From Pseudomonadota bacterium (GTDB lineage: Bacteria; Pseudomonadota; Alphaproteobacteria; Rhodobacterales; Rhodobacteraceae): a stretch of DNA of 64,000 nucleotides. The notes under the pieces are model-generated. The model searched no databases, was not told where the DNA came from, and saw nothing but the letters and a program-made list of their open reading frames with translations. The translations under genes were made by a program, and so were the position numbers. How positions within the stretch are numbered: position 1 is the stretch's first letter; every line of letters begins with the position of its first letter. Below, piece after piece: positions 18,389 through 53,427 of this stretch. The stretch is from the NCBI GenBank assembly GCA_039177645.1, contig JBCDFS010000003.1, positions 185,693 through 249,692 on the forward strand, written 5' to 3'.

Positions 18389-20431
18389 ATGCCAGGGAGC
18401 CGGCACTTGAACCGCAAGACCATCATCCAGAATCCAGAGCACGGGAACAAAGCAGAAGCCTTCGAGGCTTATGATGACATCCCGACCAATCCGAACTTGG
18501 GCAACACGATCGGGGACGTCATCCAGCGTCGCTATGGCCGAAGGGACTTTCTGCGCGGGTCATTGGGTGTGACCGCCACGACAGCCCTGTTCGGTGCAAC
18601 TGCCCTGACCGCTCCGTCGCGCGCCAAGGCGGCGGATGCCGCTTCTAGCCGCTACGTTTTCGAGGAACTGCCCTGGGGCAATGATGTCAATCATCATATC
18701 GCGGACGACTACAACGCCGATATTCTCGTGCGTTGGGGAGACCCGATCACCGCAAATGCGCCCGACTTCGATGTAATGAACCAAAGTGCCGCGGCTCAGT
18801 CCCAGCAGTTTGGTTACAACAACGATTATGTGGGCTTCGCAGAGATCGAACCCGGCCGGGGCATGCTCTGTGTGAACCACGAATACACGAACGAAGAAGT
18901 GATGTTCCCCGGCCTCGGTCGCCAGGACCGCGACGGTTTTCAAGGCATGACCCAGGATCTCGTGGACATCGAAATGGCCGCGCATGGCGGGTCGGTGTTC
19001 GAGATCGTCAAAGGCGCAGACGGGAAGTGGTCGGTCAACCGCGACAACCCGGCGAACCGCAGGATCACAGCCAACACGCCGATGACGTTTGATGGTCCTG
19101 CCGCGGGACACGACCGGCTCAAGACGAGCGCGGATCCGACTGGCATGACTGTTCTCGGCACCATCAACAACTGCGCTGGCGGTATGACGCCTTGGGGCAC
19201 CTACCTCATGGCCGAAGAGAACTTCCACGGGTATTTCTGGAGCGATGTCGTTGATGGCGAAGGCGATCCGGATGTTTCCGCCCAACCGGAAGCCGCAAGC
19301 ATGGAGCGCTATGGCGTGCCCGGCCGCTGGTATGCCTGGGGTCGCTACTACGACCGGTTCAACATTGACCGCGAGCCGAATGAACCGAACCGCTTTGGGT
19401 ATGTCGTCGAAGTGGATCCAATGAACCCCGACGCGACGCCGATCAAGCACACAGCACTTGGCCGCTTCCGCCATGAGGGCGCGGAGACCACGGTCGCGTC
19501 CGACGGGCGGCTGGTCATTTATTCCGGCGACGATAACCGTTTTGACTATCAGTATAAGTGGGTGTCGCGCGATCCGGTGACGGAAGAGAACTCGGTGTTC
19601 GGCTCGCCGCTTTTGTCAGAGGGCACGCTTTACGTGGCGCGCTTCAACGACGACGGTACCATCGACTGGCTGCCGCTGGTCCATGGCGAAGGTCCGCTGA
19701 CCGCTGAAAACGGCTTCAACAGCCAGGCCGATATCTCCATCGACACGCGGATCGCATCCGACCTGCTGGGCGCGACGCCGATGGACCGACCGGAAGACGC
19801 GCAGCCGCGTGGCGACGGCACGGCCTATATCATGCTGACCAACAACAGCCGCCGAACATCGGAGCAGTTGGACACCGCAAATCCTCGGCCCGAAAGCAAT
19901 TTTGGGCATATCATCGAGATCAAAGAAGACGGCGGAAACCACTCGGCAACGCACGGCACATGGTCAATCCTGGTGCTGTGTGGCGATCCGACCTTGGAAG
20001 AGGTCGGCGCGATGTGGAACCCCGAGACCTCAGAGCATGGCTGGTTCGGTTCACCGGACAACTGCGCCATCGACAATGACGGCCGCCTTTGGGTCTCCAC
20101 CGACCAAGGCACCGGCTGGGGCCGCACGGGCAAGTCGGATGGTCTGTATTCGCTCGAAACCGAGGGGGATCTTCGCGGTCATTCGAAACTGTTCTTCCGT
20201 TGCCCGGTGGGTGGCGAGCTTTGTGGCCCCTACTTCGCCGACAACTCCCAGACGCTGTTTCTTGCGGTCCAGCATCCAGGGACGGACGGGACCAAGGACT
20301 TTGCGGGTTTCGAGCGCGATTCGACCTTTGAGGATCCCGCGACCCGCTGGCCCGATTTCGCCGACGGCATGCCGCCCCGGCCATCGGTTGTCGTCGTGAC
20401 TAAGGGAGACGGCGGCGTTATCGGCGTCTGA
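18389..20431 (+). CDS. phoX: Tat-exported alkaline phosphatase PhoX
   Basis: GRRDFL twin-arginine, VNHEY, NNCAGGMTPWGTYLMAEENF, GRFRHE, MDRPED, SPDN, ELCGP and VQHPG motifs. Confidence 0.95.
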   Translation: MPGSRHLNRKTIIQNPEHGNKAEAFEAYDDIPTNPNLGNTIGDVIQRRYGRRDFLRGSLGVTATTALFGATALTAPSRAKAADAASSRYVFEELPWGNDVNHHIADDYNADILVRWGDPITANAPDFDVMNQSAAAQSQQFGYNNDYVGFAEIEPGRGMLCVNHEYTNEEVMFPGLGRQDRDGFQGMTQDLVDIEMAAHGGSVFEIVKGADGKWSVNRDNPANRRITANTPMTFDGPAAGHDRLKTSADPTGMTVLGTINNCAGGMTPWGTYLMAEENFHGYFWSDVVDGEGDPDVSAQPEAASMERYGVPGRWYAWGRYYDRFNIDREPNEPNRFGYVVEVDPMNPDATPIKHTALGRFRHEGAETTVASDGRLVIYSGDDNRFDYQYKWVSRDPVTEENSVFGSPLLSEGTLYVARFNDDGTIDWLPLVHGEGPLTAENGFNSQADISIDTRIASDLLGATPMDRPEDAQPRGDGTAYIMLTNNSRRTSEQLDTANPRPESNFGHIIEIKEDGGNHSATHGTWSILVLCGDPTLEEVGAMWNPETSEHGWFGSPDNCAIDNDGRLWVSTDQGTGWGRTGKSDGLYSLETEGDLRGHSKLFFRCPVGGELCGPYFADNSQTLFLAVQHPGTDGTKDFAGFERDSTFEDPATRWPDFADGMPPRPSVVVVTKGDGGVIGV

Positions 20432-20454
20432 TCCGACCGACGACCTGAATAGAG

Positions 20455-20486
20455 AACCGGCATTGCCAGCGGCGGTGCCGGTTTTT
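20455..20486 (+). terminator. Intrinsic terminator after phoX
   Basis: AACCGGCA...TGCCGGTT stem followed by TTT. Confidence 0.75.
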
Positions 20487-20749
20487 CAATTTTGAGTGCC
20501 TGCAAGTCTGGGGCGCGCAGCGTGTGGCTCTCCTTGTCCTACGCGGCGGATGCGTGACCTTTCGCCCCGCCTTCTCATGGTTTGCGACACGCGACTAGCG
20601 GCGGATTAACAGCGGAAAATCAGCCTCCGACGCCGGGCTTCCCGAGCTGCGCTCGTTCCGGGTGGCTCTGGACAAATGGCAACAGGTCGCGATCTCCGTT
20701 AATCGGCTCTGAACCGTTAACTTGTTGTTCAACGAGAATCCGCTTAGGT

Positions 20750-20870
20750 GCGGCGCAGCATAGATAGGCGTCGGGCGGGCGCGACCAGAGAAATCCCGAG
20801 AACGCTGCCGCCGCGACCGCACGCTCAACAGTGCAACCGCACCCCAAACCCACCAGGTGTTTCGCCTGGG
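20750..20870 (+). ncRNA. Candidate structured cis-regulatory leader upstream of SulP (possibly sul1-motif-like)
   Basis: Nested pairings 20750-20759/20804-20814 and 20771-20775/20795-20799, plus hairpins 20819-20834 and 20853-20869 abutting the RBS. Confidence 0.45.
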
Positions 20871-20885
20871 AAAGGAAGCTCTTGC

Positions 20886-22376
20886 ATGTTCTCATTTCAT
20901 GCCTACCGAAATGAATGGCTCAGCAATGTTCGCGCAGATCTCCTCGCCGGGCTGGTCGTTGCCCTCGCGCTGATCCCCGAGGCCATCGCCTTTTCGATCA
21001 TCGCGGGCGTGGACCCCAAGGTGGGGCTCTATGCGAGCTTCTCCATCGCGGTGATCACAGCCATCGCAGGCGGACGGCCCGGCATGATTTCAGCAGCTAC
21101 AGCGGCCACAGCGGTCCTGATGGTGACCCTGGTGCGGGATCACGGGCTGCAATATCTTTTGGCCGCGACAGTGCTGGCCGGACTGATCCAGATCGGCGCG
21201 GGCACCCTGAAACTCGGCTTTGTCATGCGCTATGTCTCGCGCTCGGTGATGACGGGTTTCGTCAATGCGCTCGCGATTCTGATCTTCATGGCGCAACTGC
21301 CCGAACTCGATCCGCGCAAGGTGACGTGGCTCACCTATGTTCTTGTCGCGGCGGGGCTCGCGATCATCTACCTCTTTCCAAGAATCACCAAATCCATCCC
21401 GTCGCCGCTGGTGACCATCATCATTTTGACCGCGCTTGTCGTCGCATTCGATTGGGATGTTCGCACCGTGGGGGATATGGGGGAACTGCCCGACGCGCTT
21501 CCGGTCTTTCTCCTCCCCGACATTCCGCTGAACTTTGAGACGCTTCGGATCATCCTGCCTTACTCCGTGGCAGTGGCGGTTGTGGGTCTGCTTGAGAGCC
21601 TTATGACGCAGAACATCGTGGATGATCTGACGGATACGAAATCGAACCGAAACCGCGAATGCATCGGTCAGGGTTTGGCCAACACGGCCACCGGGTTCAT
21701 TGGCGGGATGGCGGGTTGCGCGATGATCGGTCAGTCGATCATCAACGTGAAATCCGGCGGACGTGGGCGGCTCTCATGTTTCGTGGCGGGTGTGTTCTTG
21801 CTGATCCTCGTGGTTGGGCTCGGCGACTTAGTGGCCGTCATCCCGATGCCTGCGCTTGTTGCGATCATGATCATGGTCTCGATCGGGACGTTTTCCTGGT
21901 CGTCTATCAAGGCGTTGCGGGTGCATCCGCGCTCTTCCTCAGTTGTGATGCTCGCGACCGTGGCAACTGTGGTCTACACCCACAACCTCGCCATCGGGGT
22001 GCTTGTGGGCGTCTTGCTTTCGGGCATTTTCTTTGCGGGTAAGATTGCGCAGCTCTTCCGCGTCACCTCCGAGATCAGCCCCGATGGGCGCTTGCACACC
22101 TATCGGGTCGAGGGGCAGCTCTTCTATGGCTCGGTCGAGGATTTCATGGATGCGTTCGACTTCAAGGAGGCACCCGAGCGGGTGGTGATCGATGTGAGCG
22201 GCTCGCACATTTGGGATATCAGCTCGGTGCAAGCGCTCGACATGGCAATCCTGAAGTTCCGCAGGGATGGTGCGGAAGTGGAAGTTGTGGGAATGAATGC
22301 GGCCACGGAAACGCTGGTGGACCGGCTTGCCGTCCACGATAAACCGGGCGCCACGGCCTCGCTGGCTGCGCATTGA
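20886..22376 (+). CDS. SulP-family inorganic anion transporter with STAS domain
   Basis: [26 protein letters not shown] and C-terminal GQLFYGS...D.S (STAS); ATG at 20886. Confidence 0.93.
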
Positions 22377-22393
22377 GAAGGAGCGGAACGATC

Positions 22394-23245
22394 ATGGATA
22401 AGATCATCGCCCTGGTCGACGGCTCGATCTATTCGGAGAGCGTCTGCGACCATGCCGCCTGGATTGCCGGTCGGACCGGCGCGCCCATTGAGGTCCTCCA
22501 CGTTCTTGGCAGGCGGGAAGCGCCGGAGACGTCCGATCTGTCCGGCTCCATCCGGCTTGGGGCGCGGACGCAGCTCCTGGAGGAATTGGCCGAGCTCGAC
22601 GCGCAGCGGGCCAAGCTCGTCAGTCAGCGCGGTCGCGCGATCCTGGAAGATGCCCGCGCGATTTTCGACCGGATCGGGCTTTCCGATGTGACAACTCGTC
22701 TACGGCGCGGCGATGCCGTGGAGGCCATATCTGAGGTCGAGGACGAGGCACGCGTCATCGTGATCGGCAAGCGCGGCGAGGCGGCTGATTTCGCGAAGGG
22801 GCATCTTGGCTCAAACCTCGAACGCATCGTGCGGGCTGTGCATCGGCCTGTCTTCGTCGCCTCCCGCGCTTTCGCGCCCATCGACCGGGTGCTCGTAGCC
22901 CATGACGGTGGCAGTTCGGCGATCAAGGCGGTCGAGCACATCTCCCAAAGCCCGCTCTTCAAGGGGCTGGCGGTGACCGTTGTCTCGGTGGGGCCAGAGA
23001 CGCCAGCAGCACGGCGATGGCTGGACGACGCTACCGGGAAGCTAAACGCGGCAGGTCTCGATGCTTCGTCCCGGACGGTTGACGGGCGGCCCGAAGAGGT
23101 TCTCGGCGAGATGGTGGTGAAAGACGGCTTCGGGCTGCTCGTGATGGGCGCCTATGGGCATAGCCGCATACGCAGCCTCGTGATCGGGTCGACGACAACC
23201 GAGATGCTCCGGTCTTGCAAGGTGCCTGTGCTGTTGATGCGCTAA
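22394..23245 (+). CDS. Universal stress protein (tandem USP domains)
   Basis: IALVDGS, VIGKRG, HLGSNLERIVR and MGAYGHSRIR...GSTT motifs. Confidence 0.92.
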   Translation: MDKIIALVDGSIYSESVCDHAAWIAGRTGAPIEVLHVLGRREAPETSDLSGSIRLGARTQLLEELAELDAQRAKLVSQRGRAILEDARAIFDRIGLSDVTTRLRRGDAVEAISEVEDEARVIVIGKRGEAADFAKGHLGSNLERIVRAVHRPVFVASRAFAPIDRVLVAHDGGSSAIKAVEHISQSPLFKGLAVTVVSVGPETPAARRWLDDATGKLNAAGLDASSRTVDGRPEEVLGEMVVKDGFGLLVMGAYGHSRIRSLVIGSTTTEMLRSCKVPVLLMR

Positions 23246-23962: not shown

Positions 23963-24045
23963 TCGCTGGCCTTGGTGCGGGAGGCAGCTTCGCGGGCTGC
24001 CCTTCGCGCCAAACGCGGTGGGATCGGGCCGGGCCTCGCAATTCC

Positions 24046-25050
24046 CTATTGCGAGACGGGTTCGACCTCCGGCAAGGCGTAAGAGCGCGCCAAGACCGCC
24101 TCACCGGGCCGATAGATTCGCATCAGGAAATTCCAGCCATCAGAGATGTCGACGCGGTTGGGCTGTTCGCCACACTCCTGTTCGCTCCCGAAAAACACTG
24201 TGAAGGTGCCATCTTCGTTTAGCGTGGCATTTCGATCGTTCACGATATTCGCGTCGCTCACCATGAAGCCGTTTGCACCATAAACGGTGATCGACCAAAA
24301 CGCGTCGTTTGGGGGCACGTCGTAAGTCGCGCTATAGCAGCCCTCCACCGCACCGGGTCCAGTATAGTTGATGTAGACCGCGTCTTTTTCTGGGAAGAGG
24401 CCCCACGCTCCGGCAACGGCAAAGTGGCGGGTCTCCTCGTTTACGGCGCCTTTTGGACCCATCCAATCGGGCTCATATTGATCAAAGGTCTGAAACTCAG
24501 ACTCATATACCGCACGGAGCCGCAGCAGACTGTCGATGTCCCAATCGGGCCGCGGGAAGAGGTCGTGGCTTGCCGCCTCGATGACAAAGGCATTCTGCAA
24601 GTCATTGACCAGCTTGACCTCTTCGGGATCGTCGGGGTCCATGATCTGTATGCGCATGATGAGCGCGACATACTTTGTATCGCCTGGGATCTGGTGCGTT
24701 CCAGGTTCATAAAACACAGCCGGGGCGTAGTGGTCGTTGTCGATCACCATGACAGAGACATAGCGGTCGTCGGGCAGTTCGGGGATGGTGATCGAGGCAC
24801 CGCCTTCGGTATCGACGACTGCGCCGGCATAGAGTGTGTCGCGGTTCATCCGGACGACGGTCTGGGCGTCGGAAGGTGTGGGCTCGCGGATGTAGTAGAA
24901 CCGGTTGACGTCGCTGCCCGCGTAGCCCTGGAACTGTGCGAAGGCCATATCGACCTCGGCACGGATGTAATTCTCCGGCCCGACGAAATCCTGCGCAGCG
25001 GCGGCGCTGCCAGAGGCCACCGCCAGGATTGCCCACAAGGTCTTCTGCAT
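24046..25050 (-). CDS. Secreted DUF1254/DUF1214 protein
   Basis: Signal peptide MQKTLWAILAVASGSAAAA; VVRMNRDTLY, AFWSITVY and WNFLMRIYRP motifs. Confidence 0.85.
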   Translation of the reverse strand: MQKTLWAILAVASGSAAAAQDFVGPENYIRAEVDMAFAQFQGYAGSDVNRFYYIREPTPSDAQTVVRMNRDTLYAGAVVDTEGGASITIPELPDDRYVSVMVIDNDHYAPAVFYEPGTHQIPGDTKYVALIMRIQIMDPDDPEEVKLVNDLQNAFVIEAASHDLFPRPDWDIDSLLRLRAVYESEFQTFDQYEPDWMGPKGAVNEETRHFAVAGAWGLFPEKDAVYINYTGPGAVEGCYSATYDVPPNDAFWSITVYGANGFMVSDANIVNDRNATLNEDGTFTVFFGSEQECGEQPNRVDISDGWNFLMRIYRPGEAVLARSYALPEVEPVSQ

Positions 25051-25500
25051 CTCGCCGGCCCCTCCTGATTTGATTTGATCGCCAGGTGCCTGTCCCGGCT
25101 GCGCGAGGCTAGCATGCGTCGCGCTGGGGCAGAAGGCGGGACGCAGACCGCGCAAAATCACGATCTCGTTTCGACTTCCCCGGACTGTTATGCGGCGGGA
25201 TGCGGGCTGTCATGTCTCCCTCACCAAGCCAAATTGAGAGAATCACTTCGCGCCGCGAATCCCCAGAATCGGGGCAAGTGAGACCCCGATGGTATCAATC
25301 CTTGGGCGCCGGATCTCCACACTGTCGCGCCGTTCCCGCCCCTAACTGCCGCTTAAACTTGCGAAACAGGCGGGCTTTGAGGGTCTGTGATCGGGCTTGA
25401 GCGAGCTCCGCATCATACGCATTGCTCATGCCCGAAAAAGGCATATAGTGGTGTTAAGAAACGTTGAGGCACGAAATAGAGATACAGGAGCAGGCCGACC

Positions 25501-26286
25501 GTGCAGTCAGTCAGTGTGCAGGATAGGGTCAGTGAGGCCGTTGCAGCCGTCATGCCCTTCCAGATTCGAAGCCGCGCTTTCACGGCTGTTGTCCTGCGGT
25601 TGTCTGCGGATCCCAGCAACGGTTTCTTCGATGCGCTCGACCGTCAGCTCAAGCAAGCGCCGCACTTTTTCTCCAACGCGCCGATGGTCCTCGATCTGGG
25701 TCGCTCCGACACGCTGACGCAGGTCGACGACTTCGCGGACTTGGTCTCCGAGCTTCGGTTGCGCAACCTCTCGGTGTTTGGGGTGCAGAACGCGACGCCG
25801 GGGCAAAGCGCAGCTGCACTCGAGGCGGGCCTCATCACGCTCACAGGTGGTCGTGAGGTGCCGCATTCGCGCGACCGGCGCGACCTCCGGGCAGAACAAG
25901 CGCCAACCAAGGCAGCACCTGCCCCGGCTGCGCCGGAGCCAGAGCCCGAACCCGAGGCCAGCACGTTGATGGTCACACAGCCGGTTCGCTCCGGCCAGCG
26001 GCTGTTTGCAGATCGTGGCGATATGGTGGTGCTCGCGCCCGTTAGTTCTGGGGCGGAGCTGATCGCGCATGGAAACATTCACGTCTATGCGACGATGCGC
26101 GGCCGGGCGCTTGCCGGGGTCAACGGCAACCGGAACGCCCGCATCTTCTGCCAGGATCTGGATGCGGAACTGATTGCGATCGCGGGGCTCTATCAGACCA
26201 GCGAGGATCTGAGCCCGGAGGTGCGCGGACGGCGCATCCAGGCCTTCCTGCGCGACGATGCGCTGTGCGTTGAGGCATTGAAGTAA
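25501..26286 (+). CDS. minC: Septum site-determining protein MinC
   Basis: PVRSGQR, VSSGAELIAHGNIHVY, RGRALAG and DAELIAIAG motifs. Confidence 0.93.
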   Translation: MQSVSVQDRVSEAVAAVMPFQIRSRAFTAVVLRLSADPSNGFFDALDRQLKQAPHFFSNAPMVLDLGRSDTLTQVDDFADLVSELRLRNLSVFGVQNATPGQSAAALEAGLITLTGGREVPHSRDRRDLRAEQAPTKAAPAPAAPEPEPEPEASTLMVTQPVRSGQRLFADRGDMVVLAPVSSGAELIAHGNIHVYATMRGRALAGVNGNRNARIFCQDLDAELIAIAGLYQTSEDLSPEVRGRRIQAFLRDDALCVEALK

Positions 26287-26312
26287 GAACCGAGAAACGA
26301 GAGGAGCATTCC

Positions 26313-27131
26313 TTGGCCAAGATCATCGTTGTTACATCCGGCAAAGGTGGGGTTGGCAAGACCACCTCTTCCGCGGCAATTGGAGCGGGCCTGGCCCTGC
26401 GCGGACACAAGACGGTCGTGATCGACTTCGATGTCGGTCTGCGCAACCTCGATATGATTATGGGCTGCGAGCGCCGCGTCGTCTTCGATTTCATCAACGT
26501 GATCCAGGGCGATGCGAAGCTCAAGCAGGCCCTGATCAAGGATCGACGGAACGACAATCTCTGGGTGCTGCCAACCTCGCAAACCCGCGACAAGGATGCG
26601 CTGACGCAGGAGGGGGTCGAAACCGTCCTTAACGAATTGCGCGAGGACTTCGACTATATCATTTGCGACAGCCCCGCCGGGATTGAGCGCGGCGCGCATC
26701 TGGCGATGTATTATGCCGATGAGGCTGTGGTTGTGACCAACCCGGAAGTCTCTTCGGTGCGGGACAGCGACCGGGTTCTCGGGCTGCTCAACTCCAAGAC
26801 CAGCCGCGCCGAGAAGACCGGGGCCGAACCGGTGCAGGCGCATCTTCTCCTCACCCGCTACGACCAGGGACGTGTAGCCAAGGGTGAGATGATGAAGGTC
26901 GAGGACATCCTGGAGATCCTCTCGATCCCGCTTTTGGGCATCATTCCAGAAAGCACCACGGTTCTCAAAGCGTCGAATGTCGGCATGCCGGTGGTGTTTG
27001 ACGACAAGTCGCAGGCCGCAAAAGCCTATGAGGACGCCGTTTCGCGACTAATCGGCGAGCAGCTCGAAATCCAGCTGCAACCCGTTGAAAGACCGGGCTT
27101 CTTCCAGCGGCTTCTGGGGCGCACGGCATGA
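26313..27131 (+). CDS. minD: Septum site-determining ATPase MinD
   Basis: TSGKGGVGKTT, DFDVGLRNLD, DSPAGIE, NPEVSSVRDSDR and C-terminal GFFQRLLG amphipathic helix; TTG start. Confidence 0.96.
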   Translation: MAKIIVVTSGKGGVGKTTSSAAIGAGLALRGHKTVVIDFDVGLRNLDMIMGCERRVVFDFINVIQGDAKLKQALIKDRRNDNLWVLPTSQTRDKDALTQEGVETVLNELREDFDYIICDSPAGIERGAHLAMYYADEAVVVTNPEVSSVRDSDRVLGLLNSKTSRAEKTGAEPVQAHLLLTRYDQGRVAKGEMMKVEDILEILSIPLLGIIPESTTVLKASNVGMPVVFDDKSQAAKAYEDAVSRLIGEQLEIQLQPVERPGFFQRLLGRTA

Positions 27132-27424
27132 GGCTCTTCGGTTTTACATTCCGGGCGCCGCGCACCGACGCCACAGCGGATATGGCGAAAGAGCGGCTGC
27201 AGATCCTCCTGGCGCATGAGCGCGTGGACCGCTCAAACGCCGAGTTGCTGCCGATCCTGCAGCGGGAGATCCTTGAGGTCGTCAAGCGCCACATGAAGGT
27301 GGACAGCAAGACCGTTGACATAAAGCTCGAACGGGGCGACGACATCTCGAGCCTTGAGATCAACGTCGAGCTTCCAGGGGCGCGGCAGCTTCAGGCGGCG
27401 CGGGGCGCGGCGCTGAGCGCCTGA
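27128..27424 (+). CDS. minE: Cell division topological specificity factor MinE
   Basis: AKERLQILLAHER...LQREILEVVKRH...LEINVELP. Confidence 0.93.
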   Translation: MRLFGFTFRAPRTDATADMAKERLQILLAHERVDRSNAELLPILQREILEVVKRHMKVDSKTVDIKLERGDDISSLEINVELPGARQLQAARGAALSA

Positions 27425-27439
27425 TCCTGGCGCCCGCCC

Positions 27440-27892
27440 ATGAGCCTTTTTGCGCCGGTCATGGAGCTGGCGCTTCAAGAGGCGCGTTCGGCACAATTGC
27501 GCGGTGAGATCCCGGTCGGTGCAGTGATCGTTTCCGAGACCAGAGAGGTTCTTGCGCGCGCTGGGAACCGGACACGCGAGTTGCGAGATCCGACGGCGCA
27601 TGCCGAGTTACTCACGATTCGGGATGCTTGCGCGCGCGTGGGGTCAGAGCGACTCGTCGGCTGTACGCTTTACGTGACGTTGGAACCGTGCGCGATGTGC
27701 GCGGGCGCAATTGCCGCGGCGCGGATCGCGAAGCTTTGCTACGGCGCGTCCGACCCGAAGTCCGGCGGTGTCGAGCAAGGCGCCCGGGTTTTCGAGCAAC
27801 CTCAATCCCACCATCGGCCCGAGATTATTGGTGGGATACGCGAAGCAGAATGCGCAGAACTCTTGCGGGAATTCTTTGCGGAACGGCGGTAA
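27440..27892 (+). CDS. tadA: tRNA-specific adenosine deaminase
   Basis: GEIPVGAV, DPTAHAE, TLEPCAMC and DPKSG motifs. Confidence 0.88.
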   Translation: MSLFAPVMELALQEARSAQLRGEIPVGAVIVSETREVLARAGNRTRELRDPTAHAELLTIRDACARVGSERLVGCTLYVTLEPCAMCAGAIAAARIAKLCYGASDPKSGGVEQGARVFEQPQSHHRPEIIGGIREAECAELLREFFAERR

Positions 27893-28118
27893 TTTGAGCC
27901 TCTTCGCGCGTTCTACAGATGCGTCTATTTAGGCAACAAAATAAGGCCGAACCAGCAGCTTTGTATTACCAACACTTTTGACGCTTGATCTCGCACTTAT
28001 TCCGAGAGTATCATTCGAGCGGGGGAAATTATTAGTCGCCTGATTCTTTTTGATAGTTATTGGCCGGTGAATTGCGTCGGCATCCTCCCTTGCGAAATTG
28101 ATTTTAGGATTGTCAGAT

Positions 28119-30191
28119 ATGAAAATCGTTGACACGAAACCGGTGCCCACCGGAAAGAAACGGGTTCATCTCGCAAAGAAAACGCGCGAAGCGGCGACGC
28201 AACATCATACGTCGCTCGAGAAACCTCTCCAGACGATCGACAATGGCGATGAGAGCGATTTCCACGCAAGTTTGGCGGGTAGCTTTACCAAAGGACTCGA
28301 ACACGACGCGTTCGGTTTTGCCGACAAGGGCGAGTATCAGAAGTTCGTGTCGGCGATCAATCAGGACATCGCGACGAATTTCAATGACGTCACGGAGGCG
28401 CCCGGCCCAAATCGCTTTGAGATCGAGGGCATTTCTTGGCGCGGCTGGGAAAGTCCGCGCACGGGACACTATCATTCGCTCCAGGGCGCGGATGCGGATG
28501 CGGTCGGTATGGCTCCTGCCCCCAAGCTCGGCTCGGACGAACTCGCCGCGGAAATGGCGGAAGTCTACGCCATGGCGATGCTGCGCGATGTGCCGTTCGC
28601 GAAGATCGCCGATGGCACAGGCGTAGACCCCAATACCGGGATCGACGTCGGCAGCGTCCTCGATGCCATGTCCGGCATGGCTTATTTCGGGTCTGATGGG
28701 GACGACTCGGTCTTTTCCAAACGCCGCCGCGCGGCCCGGCTTGAAGAGCCCGAAAACTATGACATCAATCACCCGGCGACATTGACCGCCCTCACCTCAA
28801 CCTTGTTGTTCCGAGGGTCCGGTCCGGGCGCGAAATCCGGGCCATTCGTGTCGCAATTCATGCTGGTTGGTAACGACCTTTCGGGCGGAAGCACCTTTGG
28901 CGCAGCGCCCATGCGGTCGAGCACGCCAAGCGCGATGGACGGCTATATCTCCTACGGCAATCAGCTGATCGACCAGCGCGTCCGCGTGTTTCATCCGGAG
29001 ATCGACTTCATGACGGGCTGGCACGGCTGGCACGATGTCCAGCGGGGCGCGAATGTGATCGGTCGAAGCATGTTCGACCCAGAGCGGCGGTTCATCGCGA
29101 CACCACGGCATTTGGCGACCTATGTGCGCTTCGACGCGCTCTATCAGGCTTACCTCAACGCTTGCCTTATTCTGATTGGTGTCAACGCAGCCACGCAAGC
29201 AGACTTCCCAGACAAAGGGCTTAATCGTGCAGTGGACAGTCCTGGCCGCACCGGTTTCGCGAGCTTTGGCGGGCCGCAGGTCCTCTCGCTCGTGACGGAA
29301 GTCGCGACACGGTGCCTCAAATTTGCTCGTCGGCAGAAGTTCAATTTCCACCGCCGCGCGCGGCCCGAGCGCATCGGCGGGCTTCTCACCGTGGGTGCGG
29401 CCGTGACCGGCGGCGCGATCAAAACGGCACCTGCCGCGTATCGCGAAGGCACGAAGACCGCGACCGATGCCATGCTGTCGCAGCTCCAGCCGATGCTCGA
29501 TCTGGTCCACAAGCATAATGCGATGCGAAAGCAATCGGTCTTCGCAGCGCAGCATCCACTGAAGACCCCGGATGATCCGGAGTGGTTCGCGGCAGGCGAG
29601 AATTACCTCCTGCCGATGGCGTTTGCCGAAGGATCGCCGATGCACCCGGCCTATGCTGCGGGCCACGCTACTGTGGCCGGCGGTTGCGTGACCATGCTCA
29701 AAGCTTTCTTCAAGACGGTCGATGACAACGGCACGCCCGTGCCTTGGAGCGCGACAGAATTGCCACCGGTGGTATCGGATGAGGCCGGGCTCTCGCTGGT
29801 TCCTGTGGCCGAAAGCGGCATGACAATCGAGGGCGAGTTGAACAAGCTTGCTGCCAACATCTCCATCGGTCGGAATATGGCCGGGGTGCACTACTACTCG
29901 GACTACTACGACAGTCTGCGCATGGGGGAGAGGGTTGCGGTCAGCATTCTCGTGGAGCAGGCCTATACCTATGATGAGCCTGTCAGGATGGTGTTCCGCA
30001 GCTTTGACGGAGATCTGATCGAGATCGCGACCATTGCCTCCGATGCGCACACACCGAGCCGTGTCGCTGTGACAATCAACACCGATTGCAGCGACGAAGC
30101 TTATCGCAACTGGTGGTTCCGGCACATGCCGGAGCCGTCCGAACCTGAAGGCGGGGATCCCGAGCTGGCAGCGGCGGCCACCGGCCACTGA
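28119..30191 (+). CDS. Vanadium-dependent haloperoxidase (red-algal/cyanobacterial bromoperoxidase type)
   Basis: NGDE and SFTKGL.HD N-terminus, ELAAEMAEVY; active-site motifs QKFNFHRRARPE (29334-29369), SPMHPAYAAGHATVAG (about 29634-29681) and NISIGRNMAGVHYYSD (about 29856-29903). Confidence 0.88.
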   Translation: MKIVDTKPVPTGKKRVHLAKKTREAATQHHTSLEKPLQTIDNGDESDFHASLAGSFTKGLEHDAFGFADKGEYQKFVSAINQDIATNFNDVTEAPGPNRFEIEGISWRGWESPRTGHYHSLQGADADAVGMAPAPKLGSDELAAEMAEVYAMAMLRDVPFAKIADGTGVDPNTGIDVGSVLDAMSGMAYFGSDGDDSVFSKRRRAARLEEPENYDINHPATLTALTSTLLFRGSGPGAKSGPFVSQFMLVGNDLSGGSTFGAAPMRSSTPSAMDGYISYGNQLIDQRVRVFHPEIDFMTGWHGWHDVQRGANVIGRSMFDPERRFIATPRHLATYVRFDALYQAYLNACLILIGVNAATQADFPDKGLNRAVDSPGRTGFASFGGPQVLSLVTEVATRCLKFARRQKFNFHRRARPERIGGLLTVGAAVTGGAIKTAPAAYREGTKTATDAMLSQLQPMLDLVHKHNAMRKQSVFAAQHPLKTPDDPEWFAAGENYLLPMAFAEGSPMHPAYAAGHATVAGGCVTMLKAFFKTVDDNGTPVPWSATELPPVVSDEAGLSLVPVAESGMTIEGELNKLAANISIGRNMAGVHYYSDYYDSLRMGERVAVSILVEQAYTYDEPVRMVFRSFDGDLIEIATIASDAHTPSRVAVTINTDCSDEAYRNWWFRHMPEPSEPEGGDPELAAAATGH

Positions 30192-30216
30192 ACGAATGCG
30201 TTGAGGTTAGCAAGTT

Positions 30217-30246
30217 CCGCGCCCTTCTTCGGAGGGCGCGGTTTTT
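30217..30246 (+). terminator. Intrinsic terminator after the haloperoxidase gene
   Basis: CCGCGCCCT(T)C-TTCG-GAGGGCGCGG followed by TTTTT. Confidence 0.85.
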
Positions 30247-30282
30247 ATGTATACTACGTCACGTGACCGCAGCGGAGGCCAG

Positions 30283-31521
30283 TCAACGATCCGCGACGAT
30301 GGCTTTCACATCCTCTCGCCGCCAAAGCCAAGCAATCGTGGCCAATGTCACAAGAGCAGCGACGCCGCCGAACCCGAACAAAGCCGGGAAGTCGGCTGCG
30401 CCGATCAGCCCTCCGATGAAGGAGGCGATAGCTGAGGCGAGCGTGAAAAGCGCGACCGCAACACCCATCACCCAGCCCTGATCCTCCGCTGAGGTCGCCT
30501 TAGAGAAGAGCCCCAGGAAGGCTGGATACATATAGGCATGGACCACTCCCATCAGCGTAATGCAAAGGAAGGAAACCACCGGTTGTTGGACCGCCACGAA
30601 TAAGGCGATCAGACCCAATGCACCGAGCGTGAAGGCTACCATCAGTGTGCGGGGTGGCGCCAGAGCGTTGATCCTTTGCAGCGCCGGCGTGCTCGTAACA
30701 GCCAGGGTGACGCCCAAAGCGAACATCGCGGCGCTCTGGCCGGTTGTGCCATAGCCATACCAGCGCTCAAGTGCATTATCAAAAAAGACGTAGAAGGTGA
30801 TGAAACACATCATATAAAAGAGATACGGCACAGCGACCTTCAGCACGACGGGGCGCTTCGTGATCTGCCATAGAAGCGTGAAAATAGCCGATGGGTGGAT
30901 ACTCAGCGGCACCCGCGTCGTGGAGGTCTCCTGGAAGAAGACCATGACGAGCAGCATGGTTGCGGCCACGAGCGCAGCACCCACCAGGAACGGAAGCGTC
31001 AGAGCAAGGCCCGCAAAGGCGCTGGAGGAGAAGAGCCCCCCGATCAACGGACCCGCGACAAGGCCGATACCTGCACCGAGCATCACGAGGCCCATATTGC
31101 GCGCTTTCTCCGCATCGTCGCGGGAGAGATCGACAAGAGCGGCCTGCGCGATCGGTTGGTTGCCAGCGGTAAACCCGGTGATGGCCCGGCTGAGCAGCAG
31201 GAGCCAGAAGCTCGACATTTCAATGGCGATGAAAGCGAGGAGATATCCAGCGAGCGTTCCAGTGAGGCAGATCAGCACCCCACGCTTTCGGCCCACACTG
31301 TCCGAGAGCCGGGAGACATAGATCGCGCCGAAGAACCAGAAGAGGAAGAAAACGCCGACAAGAAGGCCGTAGAGCGCCTGGCGATTGGCAGCCGAGGTGC
31401 CTTCGGCCAGCATGCCTGCGCTGTCTGAGAGGATCAGGACACTGAAGATCGGGAAAGCCAGCCCTTGGCCCATGACATCGACCAGGATGACCAAGACCAT
31501 CGCTGCTTTGGCAATCGCCAT
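30283..31521 (-). CDS. MFS transporter (DHA1/Tet-like efflux type)
   Basis: About 12 hydrophobic segments; SRLSDSVGRKR motif A; AGNQPIAQAALVD; GLVAGPLIGG. Confidence 0.88.
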   Translation of the reverse strand: MAIAKAAMVLVILVDVMGQGLAFPIFSVLILSDSAGMLAEGTSAANRQALYGLLVGVFFLFWFFGAIYVSRLSDSVGRKRGVLICLTGTLAGYLLAFIAIEMSSFWLLLLSRAITGFTAGNQPIAQAALVDLSRDDAEKARNMGLVMLGAGIGLVAGPLIGGLFSSSAFAGLALTLPFLVGAALVAATMLLVMVFFQETSTTRVPLSIHPSAIFTLLWQITKRPVVLKVAVPYLFYMMCFITFYVFFDNALERWYGYGTTGQSAAMFALGVTLAVTSTPALQRINALAPPRTLMVAFTLGALGLIALFVAVQQPVVSFLCITLMGVVHAYMYPAFLGLFSKATSAEDQGWVMGVAVALFTLASAIASFIGGLIGAADFPALFGFGGVAALVTLATIAWLWRREDVKAIVADR

Positions 31522-31659
31522 CGCGTCTCTCCCCTCTCCCTGCGGCGCTTCATCTGACCATAGGCGATCAGCACGGCCCGCGCCCCATTCGCGATTTCTT
31601 GGGCCAATTTTCACTGGTAGCGCAAGGCCGCAGCACGCGGCTTTCCTTGGCCCTTAGCG

Positions 31660-33108
31660 CTAGCGCGCGATGACAAGACGCGCCCGAGCACCAGATTTCC
31701 CGGGCTCGAATGAGAGGCTTCCGCCGTGTTCCGCCGCGATTGCGGCCGCAATCGTCAGGCCCATCCCGTAGCCACCCACGGATGTCGCATTGCTGCCACG
31801 ATGAAAGGGAGCCACGAGTTTTTCCAGATCAGTCGCTGAGACGTCGCCGCCCTCATCTTCGACCAGGATATACGCATGGGCCGAGTTTGTTTCGAGCGAC
31901 ACCAATGCCCGGCGACCATACTTGAGGGCGTTGTCGATGAGATTGGAGACCGCCCGCTGAAGGGCAATGGGGCGCGCAGTGACGATGACCTGGCTTTCTT
32001 CGGGCAAGCTGCCGCGGCCCCGGCGCGACATGAATATCGATTGGCCGCCCTCCACAACCACGGTCTCGCTGCGCGAAAACTCCACCGGTTTCCCCACATC
32101 CTGATAGTCGGCGACGACGGATTCCATCAGCGATGCGAGCGCGAGGCGGCGCGGCGCCTCGGTATTCATCTCAGCGCGGGTATAGGTGAGCACGCTTTCG
32201 ATAATGCCTGTCATCCGGTCGATATCCGCTTCGAATTTCGAGCGGAGTTCTGGGTCCTCGATCAGCGCTGCGCGCAGCTTGAGCCGAGTTGCCGGCGTTC
32301 CGAGGTCGTGGGTGACCCCCGACAGAACAAGCGCGCGCTCCGAGAGCTGTTGGCGCTCGATCTCGAGATAGCCATTGACCGCATCGACGATGCGACGAAG
32401 CTCCACCGGGCCTTCTTCCTGATATGTGTCCGGCCCTCCACTGCGCCGCCGCCCCCGAAGCGTGTCGGCAAAGCTGATGAAGCGATCCGATGTTTTGATC
32501 ACGATTGTCGCTAGGCCCGCGAGGGCGAACGCCCCGGTCAACACAGCGAGGAGACGGCGGTCCGCAGGTGCCGCGGGACACTGCCAGACCCCCGGGCCAT
32601 CAGCGCGTTGCCAGGCCTCTTCGCCAACCGCCGCCAAAAGGATCGCGTCACTGCAATACCTAGCCAGCAAGACAACGATGTCGCCAAGTCTTTGGCGCGG
32701 CGACGGCGCTTCGCTCTGCGCGATCTCGGACAAGGGATAGCGGAGATCCTTCGACAGGATCGCGATCTTCATCTCCTGCCCAGAGAGCGGATCGGTTGGG
32801 TCCAGACCGATGGAGAGGTTCGTGACAAGCGGCGGCCTTGGAGCAAAGGAGAGCCGCTCGAACTCTCCCGCGTCGGCTAGGGTCTGGTCCCGCTCTGCGA
32901 GCATCGAGAGATCACTACCGACTGGCGGCTGTGTGCCCGCGATTATGCTGTCATAGAGCATTGCGCCGGAGAACGAGGCCGATTGCAGGTGTTTTTGCCA
33001 AGCCGATGTCGATGAGACCCAAAGGCCCGCGGAAACCATGCCGAGGCCCAGCGCCAGCGCGATCAACGCGACGCCCGCAACGCGCAGGGACTGAAGGCTT
33101 CGGATCAT
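31660..33108 (-). CDS. Sensor histidine kinase (EnvZ-like)
   Basis: THDLGTP H-box, NLIDNALKY, EDEGG and GYGMGL motifs; two TM segments. Confidence 0.92.
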   Translation of the reverse strand: MIRSLQSLRVAGVALIALALGLGMVSAGLWVSSTSAWQKHLQSASFSGAMLYDSIIAGTQPPVGSDLSMLAERDQTLADAGEFERLSFAPRPPLVTNLSIGLDPTDPLSGQEMKIAILSKDLRYPLSEIAQSEAPSPRQRLGDIVVLLARYCSDAILLAAVGEEAWQRADGPGVWQCPAAPADRRLLAVLTGAFALAGLATIVIKTSDRFISFADTLRGRRRSGGPDTYQEEGPVELRRIVDAVNGYLEIERQQLSERALVLSGVTHDLGTPATRLKLRAALIEDPELRSKFEADIDRMTGIIESVLTYTRAEMNTEAPRRLALASLMESVVADYQDVGKPVEFSRSETVVVEGGQSIFMSRRGRGSLPEESQVIVTARPIALQRAVSNLIDNALKYGRRALVSLETNSAHAYILVEDEGGDVSATDLEKLVAPFHRGSNATSVGGYGMGLTIAAAIAAEHGGSLSFEPGKSGARARLVIAR

Positions 33109-33842
33109 GTCTCCACTTCCGTCACCTCCGCGGCGAAGACATAGCCGACGCCGCGTTGAGTGCGCAGCAGCTCAGGCTGTTTGGGGTTCTTTTCGATCTT
33201 GGAGCGGAGCCGCCCCACCAGCATGTCGATCGCACGCCCCTGGGCTTCGGAGCTTGTGTCGCCCTCTCCCGTCACGTCGAGCGCGGCGGCAATTTCCTCC
33301 CGCGTCAGCGGAATCTGTGGATTGGCCAAGAGGGCTTGCAGAAGCGTGGTCTCGCGCCGGGAAAGCGAGACCTGGTAGCCTTGGGACGAGATGACCTCGT
33401 CGGTTCTGGAATCGTAGGACCAGCCGGCGAATTCGAAACGCGCCCGGCGTCGGCGGTGGACAACAGAGGCTGTGCGCCTTGTCCGGGCAAGCACCGCCTT
33501 GATGCGTGCGAGTAGAAGCTCTGTGTTGAAGGGCTTGGCGATATAGTCGTCGGCGCCGACGGCATACCCTGCCATCCGTTGCTGATCGGTGGAAAGCGCC
33601 GAGACCATGATGATCGGGACATCATGCTCTTCGCGCAGCTTGGCGCAGATCTCGACACCGCTTTCATCGCCGAGCATGACATCGAGCAAGATGAGGTCGA
33701 TCCGGCTTGCCCTGATATGCTCGCGAATGTCGGCCTCTCCCGCCGCTGGCAGGGCCATCGAACCGTTCCGCTGAAGAAACTGGGTCAGCATCTGACGCAT
33801 TTCGGCGTCGTCATCGACCACGAGGATCCGAGGAATCGACAT
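33105..33842 (-). CDS. OmpR-family response regulator
   Basis: ILVVDDD, LLDVMLG, GADDYIAKPF and RAIDMLVGRLRSKIE motifs; ATG at 33842. Confidence 0.93.
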   Translation of the reverse strand: MSIPRILVVDDDAEMRQMLTQFLQRNGSMALPAAGEADIREHIRASRIDLILLDVMLGDESGVEICAKLREEHDVPIIMVSALSTDQQRMAGYAVGADDYIAKPFNTELLLARIKAVLARTRRTASVVHRRRRARFEFAGWSYDSRTDEVISSQGYQVSLSRRETTLLQALLANPQIPLTREEIAAALDVTGEGDTSSEAQGRAIDMLVGRLRSKIEKNPKQPELLRTQRGVGYVFAAEVTEVET

Positions 33843-34067
33843 CTCCGAACGCCTCCCTACGCCCGCACTGTGCCGTCTGCCAGCCCCCCTTTGGTGCGTG
33901 GCCAGACGCCCGAAATCAACCGCGATGTAACAGCGCGTAACGGGGGCGTTCGTTAAGTCCAACCAACAGGCGAATAGCTGCGTTGCATCAATTGCATTCG
34001 AAGGTCGGTCTTTTGCATGGTCCGCTCACCCAATGTCTAAGAGACCATGTTCTGGGAGGAACTCAAC

Positions 34068-39856: not shown

Positions 39857-40079
39857 GACGCGCCGAGGCGCTGCACTCGCGTTCAGAGGTCGACCCGTCT
39901 GACCGCTCGGTAAACCTCGATACCGTCTCGGGTTGGGCCTCAACAACTCATCGGCAGACCATGGGATGCCGCTGGCTTACGTCCAGATCTCTCAAACCGG
40001 GGCCGCGGTTACGGATCTGAAACCATTATTCCTGCAAAGACCAGACTGGTTTCCGCCTCTCGACCTCGAGGAGCACTGT

Positions 40080-41054
40080 ATGGTCACGAGTTCCAATCAA
40101 GGTTTCTTAGCTGAAGCAACCTTACCGTCCGAAAGCGTTTTTGGCACAGAGCGCACCATCAGCGGCACGCTGAACGACGATCGGATGCGGTTTGATACGT
40201 CCAGCGCGAGCGGTCCGGCCAGCAACGATCTGATCCGCGGCTATGACGGCAACGACACGATCAATGGCGGTCGCGGCGACGATTGGGTCTCGGGCGGTGA
40301 AGGCGACGACGTCTTGGGGGATTATGCAGGAAACGACCATCTGTTCGGAGAGGGCGGGAATGACCGGCTGAATGGCCGCCAGAACAAAGACTGGCTCGAT
40401 GGCGGGACCGGCAACGACTATCTCAGGGGCGGAAACGGACGCGATACGCTGCTGGGCGGCAGCGGCAACGACACGCTTGATGGTGGCAACGGGGCCGACA
40501 CTATGCTCGGTGGCGGCAACGGCGATGAAATGTCAGGCGGATCCGGCCGGGATTCTGTCGATGGCGGTGGCGGCAACGATAGTCTGCAGGGCGGTGATGG
40601 AAACGACACGCTGATCGGCAGCCGCGGCGACGACACGCTTGAGGGCGGAGGGGGCGGCGATATCCTGATAGGCGGCGAAGGGGCTGACGTTTTCCTCTTT
40701 ACCAGCGCGGAGGATTCAATACCGGGCAGGTCCGGGCGGAAGCTCCTCTATGATGAGATTCGCGCCCCAAGCGACAGTGAGGAGAGCACAGCATCCGCTT
40801 TTGACGCCGAGGATATCATTGATCTCTCAGCTCTTGATGCAGACCAATTGCAGGACGACGATCAGGCATTTGCTTGGGGCGGCATATTGAACAGTTCGAC
40901 CCGTTCAATCGGCACCCTCTATCTCAGGGAGCGAAAGGGCGAAACGATGCTCCTTGCCAATACCGACGACGATGAAAGCTGGGAACTCAAGATCGAGATC
41001 GAAGACGGAACGCGCGAACTCCTCTGGTACGACAGCGCGAATTTTATCCTCTGA
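40080..41054 (+). CDS. RTX/hemolysin-type calcium-binding repeat protein
   Basis: Many GGxGxDx(L/I) nonapeptides (about 40220-40700) and a serralysin-like C-terminal DIIDLSALDAD...QAF; ATG at 40080 after GAGGAG. Confidence 0.85.
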   Translation: MVTSSNQGFLAEATLPSESVFGTERTISGTLNDDRMRFDTSSASGPASNDLIRGYDGNDTINGGRGDDWVSGGEGDDVLGDYAGNDHLFGEGGNDRLNGRQNKDWLDGGTGNDYLRGGNGRDTLLGGSGNDTLDGGNGADTMLGGGNGDEMSGGSGRDSVDGGGGNDSLQGGDGNDTLIGSRGDDTLEGGGGGDILIGGEGADVFLFTSAEDSIPGRSGRKLLYDEIRAPSDSEESTASAFDAEDIIDLSALDADQLQDDDQAFAWGGILNSSTRSIGTLYLRERKGETMLLANTDDDESWELKIEIEDGTRELLWYDSANFIL

Positions 41055-52938: not shown

Positions 52939-53049
52939 CGTCTTCCCACGGTTGTGGTTGAAAGTTACGCGCGACCGATGTTGGATTTGAAACCGAATGC
53001 TACTGCGGAACACAGTTAGTTCAGGAATATGCCCAGCTCGCTTGGAAAT

Positions 53050-53345: not shown

Positions 53346-53427
53346 ATAGTCCCGTTTCCGAGACACTCAGAACATAGTGCAATCGGCGGAGGATTTGAAG
53401 CCCTGCCAAGTGCAGGGCGCCCGACGG

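Follow-up and report, generated by a model that had tools for sequence, protein, structure and literature searches.

How does a heterotrophic alphaproteobacterium come to carry a haloperoxidase of the type described from algae and cyanobacteria, and what would it do with it? We addressed this question in a 64,000-nucleotide stretch of a Rhodobacteraceae genome (GCA_039177645.1, contig JBCDFS010000003.1, positions 185,693 to 249,692; hereafter the window), in which an earlier reading made from the letters alone (the sequence-only reading) had picked out a gene for a vanadium haloperoxidase (VHPO) lying between tadA and a convergent exporter gene of the major facilitator superfamily (MFS). From its sequence and its structural model, the protein is predicted to be an intact, cytoplasmic, vanadium-dependent bromoperoxidase of the "long", probably oligomeric, Corallina/Acaryochloris type, and the residues described below indicate that it is very probably an active vanadium bromo- or iodoperoxidase. 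It is a new member of a widely annotated marine bacterial family, not a new kind of enzyme.

A phmmer search against all PDB chains retrieved the bromoperoxidases of Acaryochloris marina (5LPC, E 2.5e-106), Corallina officinalis (1QHB, E 4.8e-100), Corallina pilulifera (1UP8, E 1.2e-99) and Ascophyllum nodosum (1QI9, E 1.4e-48). Each alignment is continuous and ends at query residue 636, which corresponds to the C-terminus of those chains (for the first three, the start is at residue 42 or 103), and the identity to the solved vanadium bromoperoxidases (VBPOs) is about 35% across the structural alignment. We then built an AlphaFold2 monomer model on a 55-sequence alignment, with a predicted template-modelling (TM) score of 0.89 and a mean predicted local distance difference test score (pLDDT) of 83.6. 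In Foldseek, ranks 1 to 12 are all vanadium bromoperoxidases (E 4e-35 to 1e-24, target-normalised TM-score 0.73-0.86), and the predicted model matches 5lpc, 1qhb, 1up8 and 8vh0 with a probability of 1.00 and target-normalised TM-scores of 0.78-0.86. The structures of the Zobellia iodoperoxidase and of Streptomyces NapH1 and NapH3 reach only E 0.1-1.7 and TM-scores below 0.26. From this ranking, we therefore place the protein with the long algal/cyanobacterial enzymes and not with the short bacterial types.

By comparing the protein with the characterised enzymes, we found that the best match in both sequence and fold is the Acaryochloris enzyme (AmVHPO, also AmVBPO; 5LPC, 8Q20-22), with a query-normalised TM-score of 0.71 and a target-normalised one of 0.78. 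The two proteins share the K-x7-RP, HPxYxAGH (with Ala, not Ser) and R-x4-VHY motifs, the equivalences R425=R404, E139=E111 and H513=H509, the lack of a signal peptide, and the status of a single gene outside any biosynthetic cluster. Besides the roughly 35% identity, they differ in a long N-terminal part of AmVHPO that the window protein lacks, a region of poor alignment in which query residues 1-102 find hardly any match, in a 54-residue WWFRH extension that the window protein adds, and in the host, a heterotrophic alphaproteobacterium and not a cyanobacterium. The Corallina officinalis and C. pilulifera VBPOs (1QHB, 1UP8, 7QWI, 8VH0) match at E ~1e-100 over residues 42-636, with TM-scores up to 0.86 and a root-mean-square deviation of 3.4 Å. 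Their active-site residues map one to one, except that Ser485 is Ala514 in the window protein; their chains end at the equivalent of residue 636. The Corallina enzymes are eukaryotic and dodecameric. The Zobellia galactanivorans iodoperoxidase (4CIT), Streptomyces NapH1/NapH3 (3W36, 8CXL) and the AQ-brominating VHPOs use the same vanadate/H2O2/halide chemistry. Short bacterial VHPOs, of 410-470 residues, mostly carry secretion signals or belong to biosynthetic clusters (PMC11312541). We rejected membership in the selective bacterial VHPOs (NapH1/Mcl24/AQ-VHPO, ~450-530 residues), given Foldseek E-values of 0.28-0.69 to 3w35/3w36, the lack of a signal peptide and the lack of a cluster, and membership in the Zobellia vanadium iodoperoxidase subfamily, given a weak Foldseek match only.

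All the vanadate-binding motifs could be located with regular expressions: NGDE at residues 42-45, SFTKGL at 55-60, KFNFHRRARP (K-x7-RP) at 407-416, HPAYAAGH at 509-516 and RNMAGVHY at 585-592. Among the 55 aligned homologs, E111, R404, K407, R415, P416, S506, H509, G515, H516, R585 and H591 are invariant. Mapping to the C. pilulifera enzyme (CpVBPO) through HMMER alignments gave R404=R397, K407=K400, R415=R408, H509=H480, A514=S485, G515=G486, H516=H487, R585=R547 and H591=H553, and A514 is the sole mapped residue that is not invariant. Alignment shows that at this position the Corallina Ser is replaced by Ala, as in the active A. marina enzyme, and E111 is the equivalent of Glu139 of A. marina. 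The sequence-only reading, which had named an algal/cyanobacterial-type VHPO with a full set of vanadate-binding motifs, is thus borne out by sequence, motifs and fold alike.

The bromoperoxidase-type second shell is also present, in the form of R404 and H509. A His in place of Phe beside the vanadate is the feature by which bromoperoxidases contrast with the Curvularia chloroperoxidase. The roles of R425 and K428 have been studied in AmVHPO; the Arg that precedes the Lys by three residues (R425 in AmVHPO, R397 in CpVBPO) is the position at which mutation shifts the cyanobacterial enzyme towards chlorination, and chlorinating enzymes have Trp there (PMC11871015). Chlorination appeared in the R425S variant of AmVHPO. 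Since R404 is kept in the window protein, bromide and iodide are the expected substrates, and the physiological halide should be one of these rather than chloride.

The gene itself is well delimited. The longest reading of the frame on the forward strand runs from a TTG at 28098 to 30191, while an ATG at 28119 gives 690 residues. An AGGA Shine-Dalgarno sequence at 28106-28109 precedes this ATG with a spacing of 9 nt, the TTG is without a ribosome-binding site, and the N-terminus starting from the ATG lines up with those of the homologs, in which P8, R15, R23 and A26 are nearly invariant; because of the Shine-Dalgarno sequence and this alignment, ATG 28119 is the credible start. The Kyte-Doolittle profile shows neither a signal peptide (maximum 15-residue mean of 0.15 within the first 70 residues) nor a transmembrane segment (maximum 19-residue mean of 1.39 over the whole VHPO protein). 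Characterised eukaryotic and cyanobacterial VHPOs likewise have no signal peptide (PMC11312541).

The 226-bp spacer between tadA and the VHPO gene has a guanine-plus-cytosine (GC) content of 0.44. Among the 17 intergenic regions of 80 bp or more that the window contains (mean 0.60, standard deviation 0.068), none is lower, and the spacer probably carries the gene's own promoter. A candidate sigma-70-like promoter, TTGATC-18-TATCAT, lies at 27985-28014; it is a consensus match only, with 2 such matches found against 1.3 expected. The upstream spacers of all seven closest homologs are also lower in GC than their genomes, by 0.05-0.16, which is the typical look of promoter regions, and no operator or promoter motif beyond chance 8-9-mers is shared between the window spacer and those seven. 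An Rfam scan of the spacer returned no family, and a scan of spacer plus gene gave a sub-threshold match on the terminator hairpin only. This hairpin (CCGCGCCCTTC, TTCG type, 30217-30241) has 11 pairs, 9 of them G-C, and is followed by TTTTT. With its AT-rich promoter region, Shine-Dalgarno sequence and terminator, the VHPO gene is a single-gene transcription unit. The coordinates and length of the gene, the missing signal peptide, the AT-rich upstream region, the UUCG terminator and the position between tadA and the MFS gene had all been read from the letters beforehand, and all of them hold.

A single public run, a marine metagenome, contains this DNA. Since two assembler contigs (26483-29884 and 29855-34000) cross both gene junctions at an even depth of 12-14x with no variants, the tadA-VHPO-MFS arrangement is not chimeric. 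A joint 27413->29480, considered as a deletion variant, was rejected as a spurious short match, since it rests on one contig of high depth in which only 21 letters match on one of the two sides. An exact-sequence lookup of the VHPO protein among contigs gave no match. The gap from the VHPO terminator to the stop codon of the MFS gene holds a perfect 10-bp palindrome (GTCACGTGAC, 30258-30267).

In order to see whether the gene belongs to a conserved locus, we compared 41 genome loci encoding a VHPO homolog, with their open reading frames clustered. Neither tadA nor minCDE nor an orthologous MFS gene (searched by tblastn) lies near the VHPO gene in any of them, no neighbour in the window recurs among the seven closest loci or among all 41, and the neighbours of the seven closest are mutually unrelated. 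The earlier description of the gene as "stand-alone" therefore agrees with the comparison. A MinD search led us to two relatives, L050 (JGI) and L051 (GCA_040777765.1), which carry minC-minD-minE-tadA in the same order. By blastn, window positions 25415-27892 align with L050:3030-5498 and L051:444-2921 at 76.5% identity over ~2.49 kb (81.8% between L050 and L051), and the homology with the window ends exactly at the tadA stop codon. What follows within 20-50 bp of this stop is a gene for a GMC oxidoreductase in L051 and an unrelated gene in L050; both are convergent, and neither occurs in the window. In moderately related Rhodobacterales (TadA 74-76% identical), the order is pseudouridine synthase, tadA, a Lactamase_B-fold gene and gatCA, with the VHPO gene absent. 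Synteny in this lineage thus breaks at the tadA 3' flank, a position at which only the window's genome has the VHPO gene. The sequence-only reading had suggested looking at tadA with or without this gene in close relatives, and the outcome is that the gene is accessory and non-syntenic.

The minC-minD-minE-tadA block behaves as a conserved four-gene module, with 76-82% DNA identity among the three uncultured relatives, although the genes that flank it on either side differ completely from one relative to the next. Plasmids or chromids carry minCDE in Paracoccus.

The family to which the protein belongs is large and widely spread: among 1.84 billion representatives of 50%-identity clusters, 2583 pass a threshold of E<=1e-3 and 674 the stricter one of E<=1e-30. 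Many homologs from metagenome-assembled genomes (MAGs) of Pseudomonadota are already named "bromoperoxidase" or "vanadium-dependent haloperoxidase", and naming the present gene a vanadium-dependent bromoperoxidase is a routine matter of annotation. The best non-self homolog is 56% identical, and the nearest relatives are all from heterotrophic bacteria, with cyanobacterial sequences further away; the algal or cyanobacterial origin implied by the earlier title is not upheld. The true clade includes homologs from Citreimonas, Roseovarius, Roseibium, Rhodoplanes sp. TEM and Granulosicoccus, with 47-56% identity over 96-98% of the length. Ruegeria haliotis, Tropicibacter naphthalenivorans and Pseudooceanicola sp. 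LIPI14-2-Ac024 are examples of cultured carriers of a homolog. These marine Pseudomonadota proteins have 650-725 residues, the same C-terminal extension (WWxRH) and the same invariant residues, and the tadA/MFS context occurs in none.

A midpoint-rooted tree that we calculated from 40 sequences by neighbour joining is indicative only. The window VHPO is sister to a protein from an unclassified Pseudomonadota MAG (87 of 100 bootstraps), and its clade also holds Citreimonas and Roseovarius P0019 (Rhodobacterales) as well as Granulosicoccaceae (Gammaproteobacteria). Rhodobacterales sequences occur in at least five separate places, at least four of them outside the window clade (Ruegeria haliotis, Antarctobacter, Roseobacter sp. 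HKCCA0434, Donghicola, Sagittula, Pseudooceanicola and IMCC34051), interleaved with Gammaproteobacteria, Hyphomicrobiales, Betaproteobacteria, Planctomycetota, Actinomycetota and Cyanobacteria. This patchy phylogeny favours repeated transfer over ancient paralogy followed by loss.

The composition of the gene sets a limit on when such a transfer may have happened. The GC contents at the three codon positions (0.62/0.47/0.72) are neighbour-like (third-position GC of the neighbours, 0.68-0.81), and its synonymous codon usage does not stand out among the 36 genes compared in the window (rank 21, z +0.16). Around it there are no mobility genes (integrase or insertion sequence) and no convincing flanking repeats, just short chance-like ones; tadA is protein-coding and the transfer-messenger RNA (tmRNA) gene is 23 kb distant, so this is not an insertion next to a tRNA or tmRNA gene. 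The spacer upstream is the sole compositional oddity at the locus. Because third-position GC and codon usage are host-like and mobile-element scars are missing, the transfer was not recent, and we rejected a recently transferred genomic island on the same grounds. An inverted repeat, 27898-27912/28181-28195 (15 nt, 93% complementary), was discarded as an insertion mark and judged a chance match, having one arm within the coding sequence and no 3' counterpart. Nor did a plasmid origin gain support: when 24000-34000 was compared with plasmids, minCDE of Paracoccus replicons (75% identity) was the sole match, and nothing matched the VHPO gene. Transfer fits only if the gene was acquired long ago or from a compositionally similar donor. 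Of the earlier proposal of horizontal acquisition, the accessory and polyphyletic distribution speaks for it, while native composition and missing mobility genes speak against a recent event.

The same observations give some room to a possible, if rather doubtful, alternative, namely that the gene is old in the Rhodobacterales, was passed on by vertical descent and has disappeared from most lineages, and that the differences in its flanks reflect ordinary rearrangement. Native composition and codon usage, the lack of integrase, insertion sequence or flanking repeats and the presence of Citreimonas and Roseovarius P0019 in the window clade would all suit such a history, and the three related genomes all differ on both flanks of minCDE-tadA, which suggests that rearrangement is common there. 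However, the Rhodobacterales are polyphyletic in the tree, interleaved with Gammaproteobacteria, Hyphomicrobiales, Planctomycetota and Actinomycetota. Moreover, the VHPO identity within the order (52-54%) is about that to Roseibium of another order (52%) and slightly above that to Granulosicoccaceae of another class (47-50%), while MinD is 81-91% identical within the order. Repeated, non-recent transfer remains the reading that we prefer.

With respect to function, the mechanism of the family can be projected onto the mapped residues. Vanadate would be held covalently by H591 and hydrogen-bonded by K407, R415, G515 and R585. H2O2 would bind to form peroxovanadate, with H516 as the acid-base catalyst and K407, R415, G515 and R585 polarising the peroxo-vanadate. 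Bromide or iodide would then be oxidised to hypobromous acid (HOBr) or another hypohalous acid, or to an enzyme-associated Br+ equivalent, and the oxidised halogen would brominate nearby electron-rich organic molecules and other nucleophiles. The net result would be the consumption of H2O2 and the formation of bromocarbons or brominated metabolites. The algal and cyanobacterial homologs are described as non-selective producers of hypohalous acids, to which peroxide removal, antifouling and bromoform formation are ascribed (PMC8407465). Because the window gene has no conserved biosynthetic, regulatory or transport partner, and because of this literature, we favour a role in halide-dependent H2O2 consumption and non-specific bromination. 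It seems the most economical proposal, held with considerably less confidence than the enzyme assignment.

Several points weigh against the picture drawn so far. Pfam and NCBIfam scans of the VHPO protein returned no family, in the case of Pfam even at E<=10; as a consequence, the family assignment rests on the PDB homologs and on the precomputed PF22778 tag that the homologs carry, and the empty scan is a gap in the libraries and not evidence against membership. Automatic annotation could leave such genes as "hypothetical protein", of which the homologs of Roseibium, Citreimonas, Roseovarius and Rhodoplanes are examples. The halide preference is not reliably readable from sequence; AmVBPO itself chlorinates weakly (PMC13519999). 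A literature search found no characterised proteobacterial, including alphaproteobacterial, enzyme of the long type. A cytoplasmic generator of HOBr is potentially self-damaging. Finally, the nearest relatives are only ~76% identical in DNA, which shows non-conserved synteny and not a clean insertion site.

The C-terminus is where the window protein departs from the solved enzymes. None of the solved VBPO structures has anything equivalent to its final 54 residues (637-690). In the AlphaFold2 model, they include a β-strand (648-654) and a short helix (662-666), with pLDDT of 69-86 over residues 641-670. The helix carries WWFRH (residues 665-669, nt 30111-30125); in close homologs, W665, R668 and H669 are each conserved to at least 90%. 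The pattern W[WFY]x[RK]H, placed 60-75 residues past VHY, is found in 130 of the 250 retrieved family proteins, and WWxRx variants occur in many others. Cyanobacterial and Bacteroidota members, which do not have the motif, and one Planctomycetota member end ~44-50 residues past VHY, like the solved enzymes. The papers that we consulted do not mention the WWxRH extension.

It is tempting to read this extension as the mark of something new. The non-cyanobacterial bacterial clade, marked by its extension and cytoplasmic location, could form a VHPO subclass with a function of its own in heterotrophic marine bacteria. Or its enzymes could make heterotrophic Rhodobacterales and related bacteria a so far overlooked source of bromoform and similar marine bromocarbons, or equip them with an intracellular halide-dependent defence against peroxide; we regard all of this as unlikely. 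In a distinct subclass, the extension might sit as a cap or gate over the entrance to the active site of an adjacent subunit, and so confer substrate selectivity or a different oligomeric assembly. For the non-specific bromoperoxidase that we favour, the wider interest lies in the observation that heterotrophic marine Pseudomonadota, too, carry intact enzymes of algal/cyanobacterial type, mostly as single accessory genes and in several hundred homolog clusters. Volatile bromocarbons from the ocean affect the ozone chemistry of the atmosphere, and their production is usually credited to algae and cyanobacteria. Such a homolog could help to test whether heterotrophs have a share in halogen cycling, or whether they direct HOBr at competing organisms or at signalling molecules. 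Halogenation catalysis already makes use of AmVHPO and the Corallina enzymes, and a robust soluble bacterial homolog could interest biocatalysis.

A more specific function, that of a tailoring halogenase acting on a particular substrate in a natural-product or signal-modifying pathway, with the adjacent MFS protein exporting the product or conferring self-resistance, is in our view very unlikely. What invites this idea is the Tet-like MFS_1 transporter gene of efflux type, convergent and 92 nt downstream of the VHPO gene, together with an MFS_1 gene ~1.6 kb upstream of the VHPO gene in the sister locus L023. Binding of substrate at a subunit interface has also been shown for engineered AmVHPO (PMC11871015). 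However, no biosynthetic genes flank the VHPO gene in the window by Pfam and NCBIfam, the seven closest homologs share no neighbours, and tblastn finds the orthologue of the window MFS beside VHPO in 0 of the 41 loci, L023 included. The MFS gene follows a response regulator and histidine kinase pair on its own strand. The two regulatory genes overlap by 4 nt and the kinase-MFS gap is 45 nt (138 nt with an internal ATG), so that the three (30283..33962) probably form a separate operon, convergent on the VHPO gene and outside its unit. A metagenome scan with the window MFS protein matched a single 43% homolog in unrelated context. The selective VHPOs (NapH1, AQ-VHPO) belong to a different, shorter and usually secreted subfamily (E ~0.1 or worse against the model). 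The link to export or self-resistance made in the sequence-only reading accordingly falls away, and the MFS looks like a partner of the two-component pair.

Least probable of all, and in our opinion scarcely credible, is a mainly phosphatase activity (PAP2-superfamily chemistry) or a non-halogenating role like that of NapH3: VHPOs and PAP2 acid phosphatases share their active-site architecture, Foldseek gives very weak matches to the acid phosphatases 1iw8 and 9jq0 (E ~4-5) and an unlinked PhoX phosphatase gene lies 8 kb upstream, but all close solved relatives are bromoperoxidases, the K-x7-RP spacing with H509 and R404 is the Corallina/Acaryochloris VBPO pattern, all vanadate ligands are intact (in NapH3 they are not all intact) and the Pfam PAP2 model gives no match to the VHPO protein.

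Some marine Pseudomonadota relatives of the bromoperoxidase gene have conserved neighbours, in small clusters that do not occur in the window. In L039:5157-12088 and L003:2181-9238, a LuxR-type regulator, a ~470-residue unknown protein and a homolog of animal haem peroxidases (PF03098, E 5e-32) accompany the VHPO, an arrangement that places two types of peroxidase side by side. In a more distant subclade of ~42% identity (L011, L013, L014, L016 and L029; for example L013:4435-9527), the VHPO gene adjoins genes for a 540-600-residue winged helix-turn-helix/tetratricopeptide repeat (wHTH/TPR, BTAD-like) regulator, a ~380-residue PAP2-superfamily protein (PF01569, E 2e-14) and a subtilase-like protein (S8 peptidase) of 760-840 residues. 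The wHTH/TPR regulator lies within 10 kb of the VHPO gene in 11 of the 41 loci. As conserved partners of the window gene, this regulator, the PAP2-like protein and the S8 peptidase were rejected, being absent from the window and most close relatives.

Table 1. Position of the VHPO gene, its functional sites and its flanking features in the window
Feature	Position	Strand	Remark
minC-minD-minE-tadA block	25501..27892	+	Conserved left flank
AT-rich tadA-VHPO spacer, putative own promoter and Shine-Dalgarno sequence	27893..28118	+	GC 0.44
VHPO coding sequence, bromoperoxidase type, 690 residues, predicted cytoplasmic	28119..30191	+	PDB phmmer, AlphaFold2, Foldseek, homologs over 96-98% of length
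R404 (halide-specificity position, AmVHPO R425/CpVBPO R397), K407, R415-P416	29328..29366	+	Invariant in 55
HPAYAAGH: H509 (extra His of bromoperoxidases, Cp H480/Am H513), A514-G515, H516 (predicted acid-base His, Cp H487)	29643..29666	+	
RNMAGVHY: R585 (predicted vanadate-binding), H591 (predicted covalent vanadate His, Cp H553)	29871..29894	+	Invariant, mapped
C-terminal extension, residues 637-690	30027..30188	+	Absent from all solved VBPOs
VHPO intrinsic terminator: 11-bp stem, TTCG-containing loop, T5	30217..30246	+	
Tet-like MFS transporter	30283-31614	-	Pfam/NCBIfam
Histidine kinase	31660-33108	-	Pfam/NCBIfam
OmpR-type response regulator	33105-33962	-	Pfam/NCBIfam

The host assignment rests on genes other than the VHPO. 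A permuted (two-piece) tmRNA gene, of a form typical of Alphaproteobacteria and thus the mark of an alphaproteobacterial chromosome, lies at 53043-53376 on the reverse strand and encodes the tag peptide ANDNYAPVRVAA. The upstream neighbour TadA (NCBIfam NF008113, E 2e-39) is 70-77% identical to proteins of Amaricoccus, Litoreibacter and Sulfitobacter (Rhodobacteraceae/Paracoccaceae), MinD is 81-91% identical to Rhodobacteraceae, Paracoccus and Amaricoccus proteins, and the minCDE DNA is 75% identical to Paracoccus replicons. The tmRNA, TadA and MinD support the Rhodobacterales-like host proposed earlier, and a close sequenced relative was not found.

Further out, minCDE is preceded by genes for a DUF1254/DUF1214 protein, an isochorismatase, a Usp protein, a SulP/STAS anion transporter and PhoX, and an ABC uptake system of sugar type follows beyond the MFS, histidine kinase and OmpR-type regulator genes. 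Within the upstream group, the run at 18389-23245 on the forward strand, 5-10 kb upstream of the VHPO gene, consists of the PhoX alkaline phosphatase (with a weak Tat-signal match), the SulP/STAS transporter and a tandem-Usp protein, and resembles a phosphate- or anion-stress neighbourhood. On the other side, at 39933-41054 of the forward strand, the window encodes an RTX/HemolysinCabind repeat protein (PF00353, E 2e-34, six stretches).

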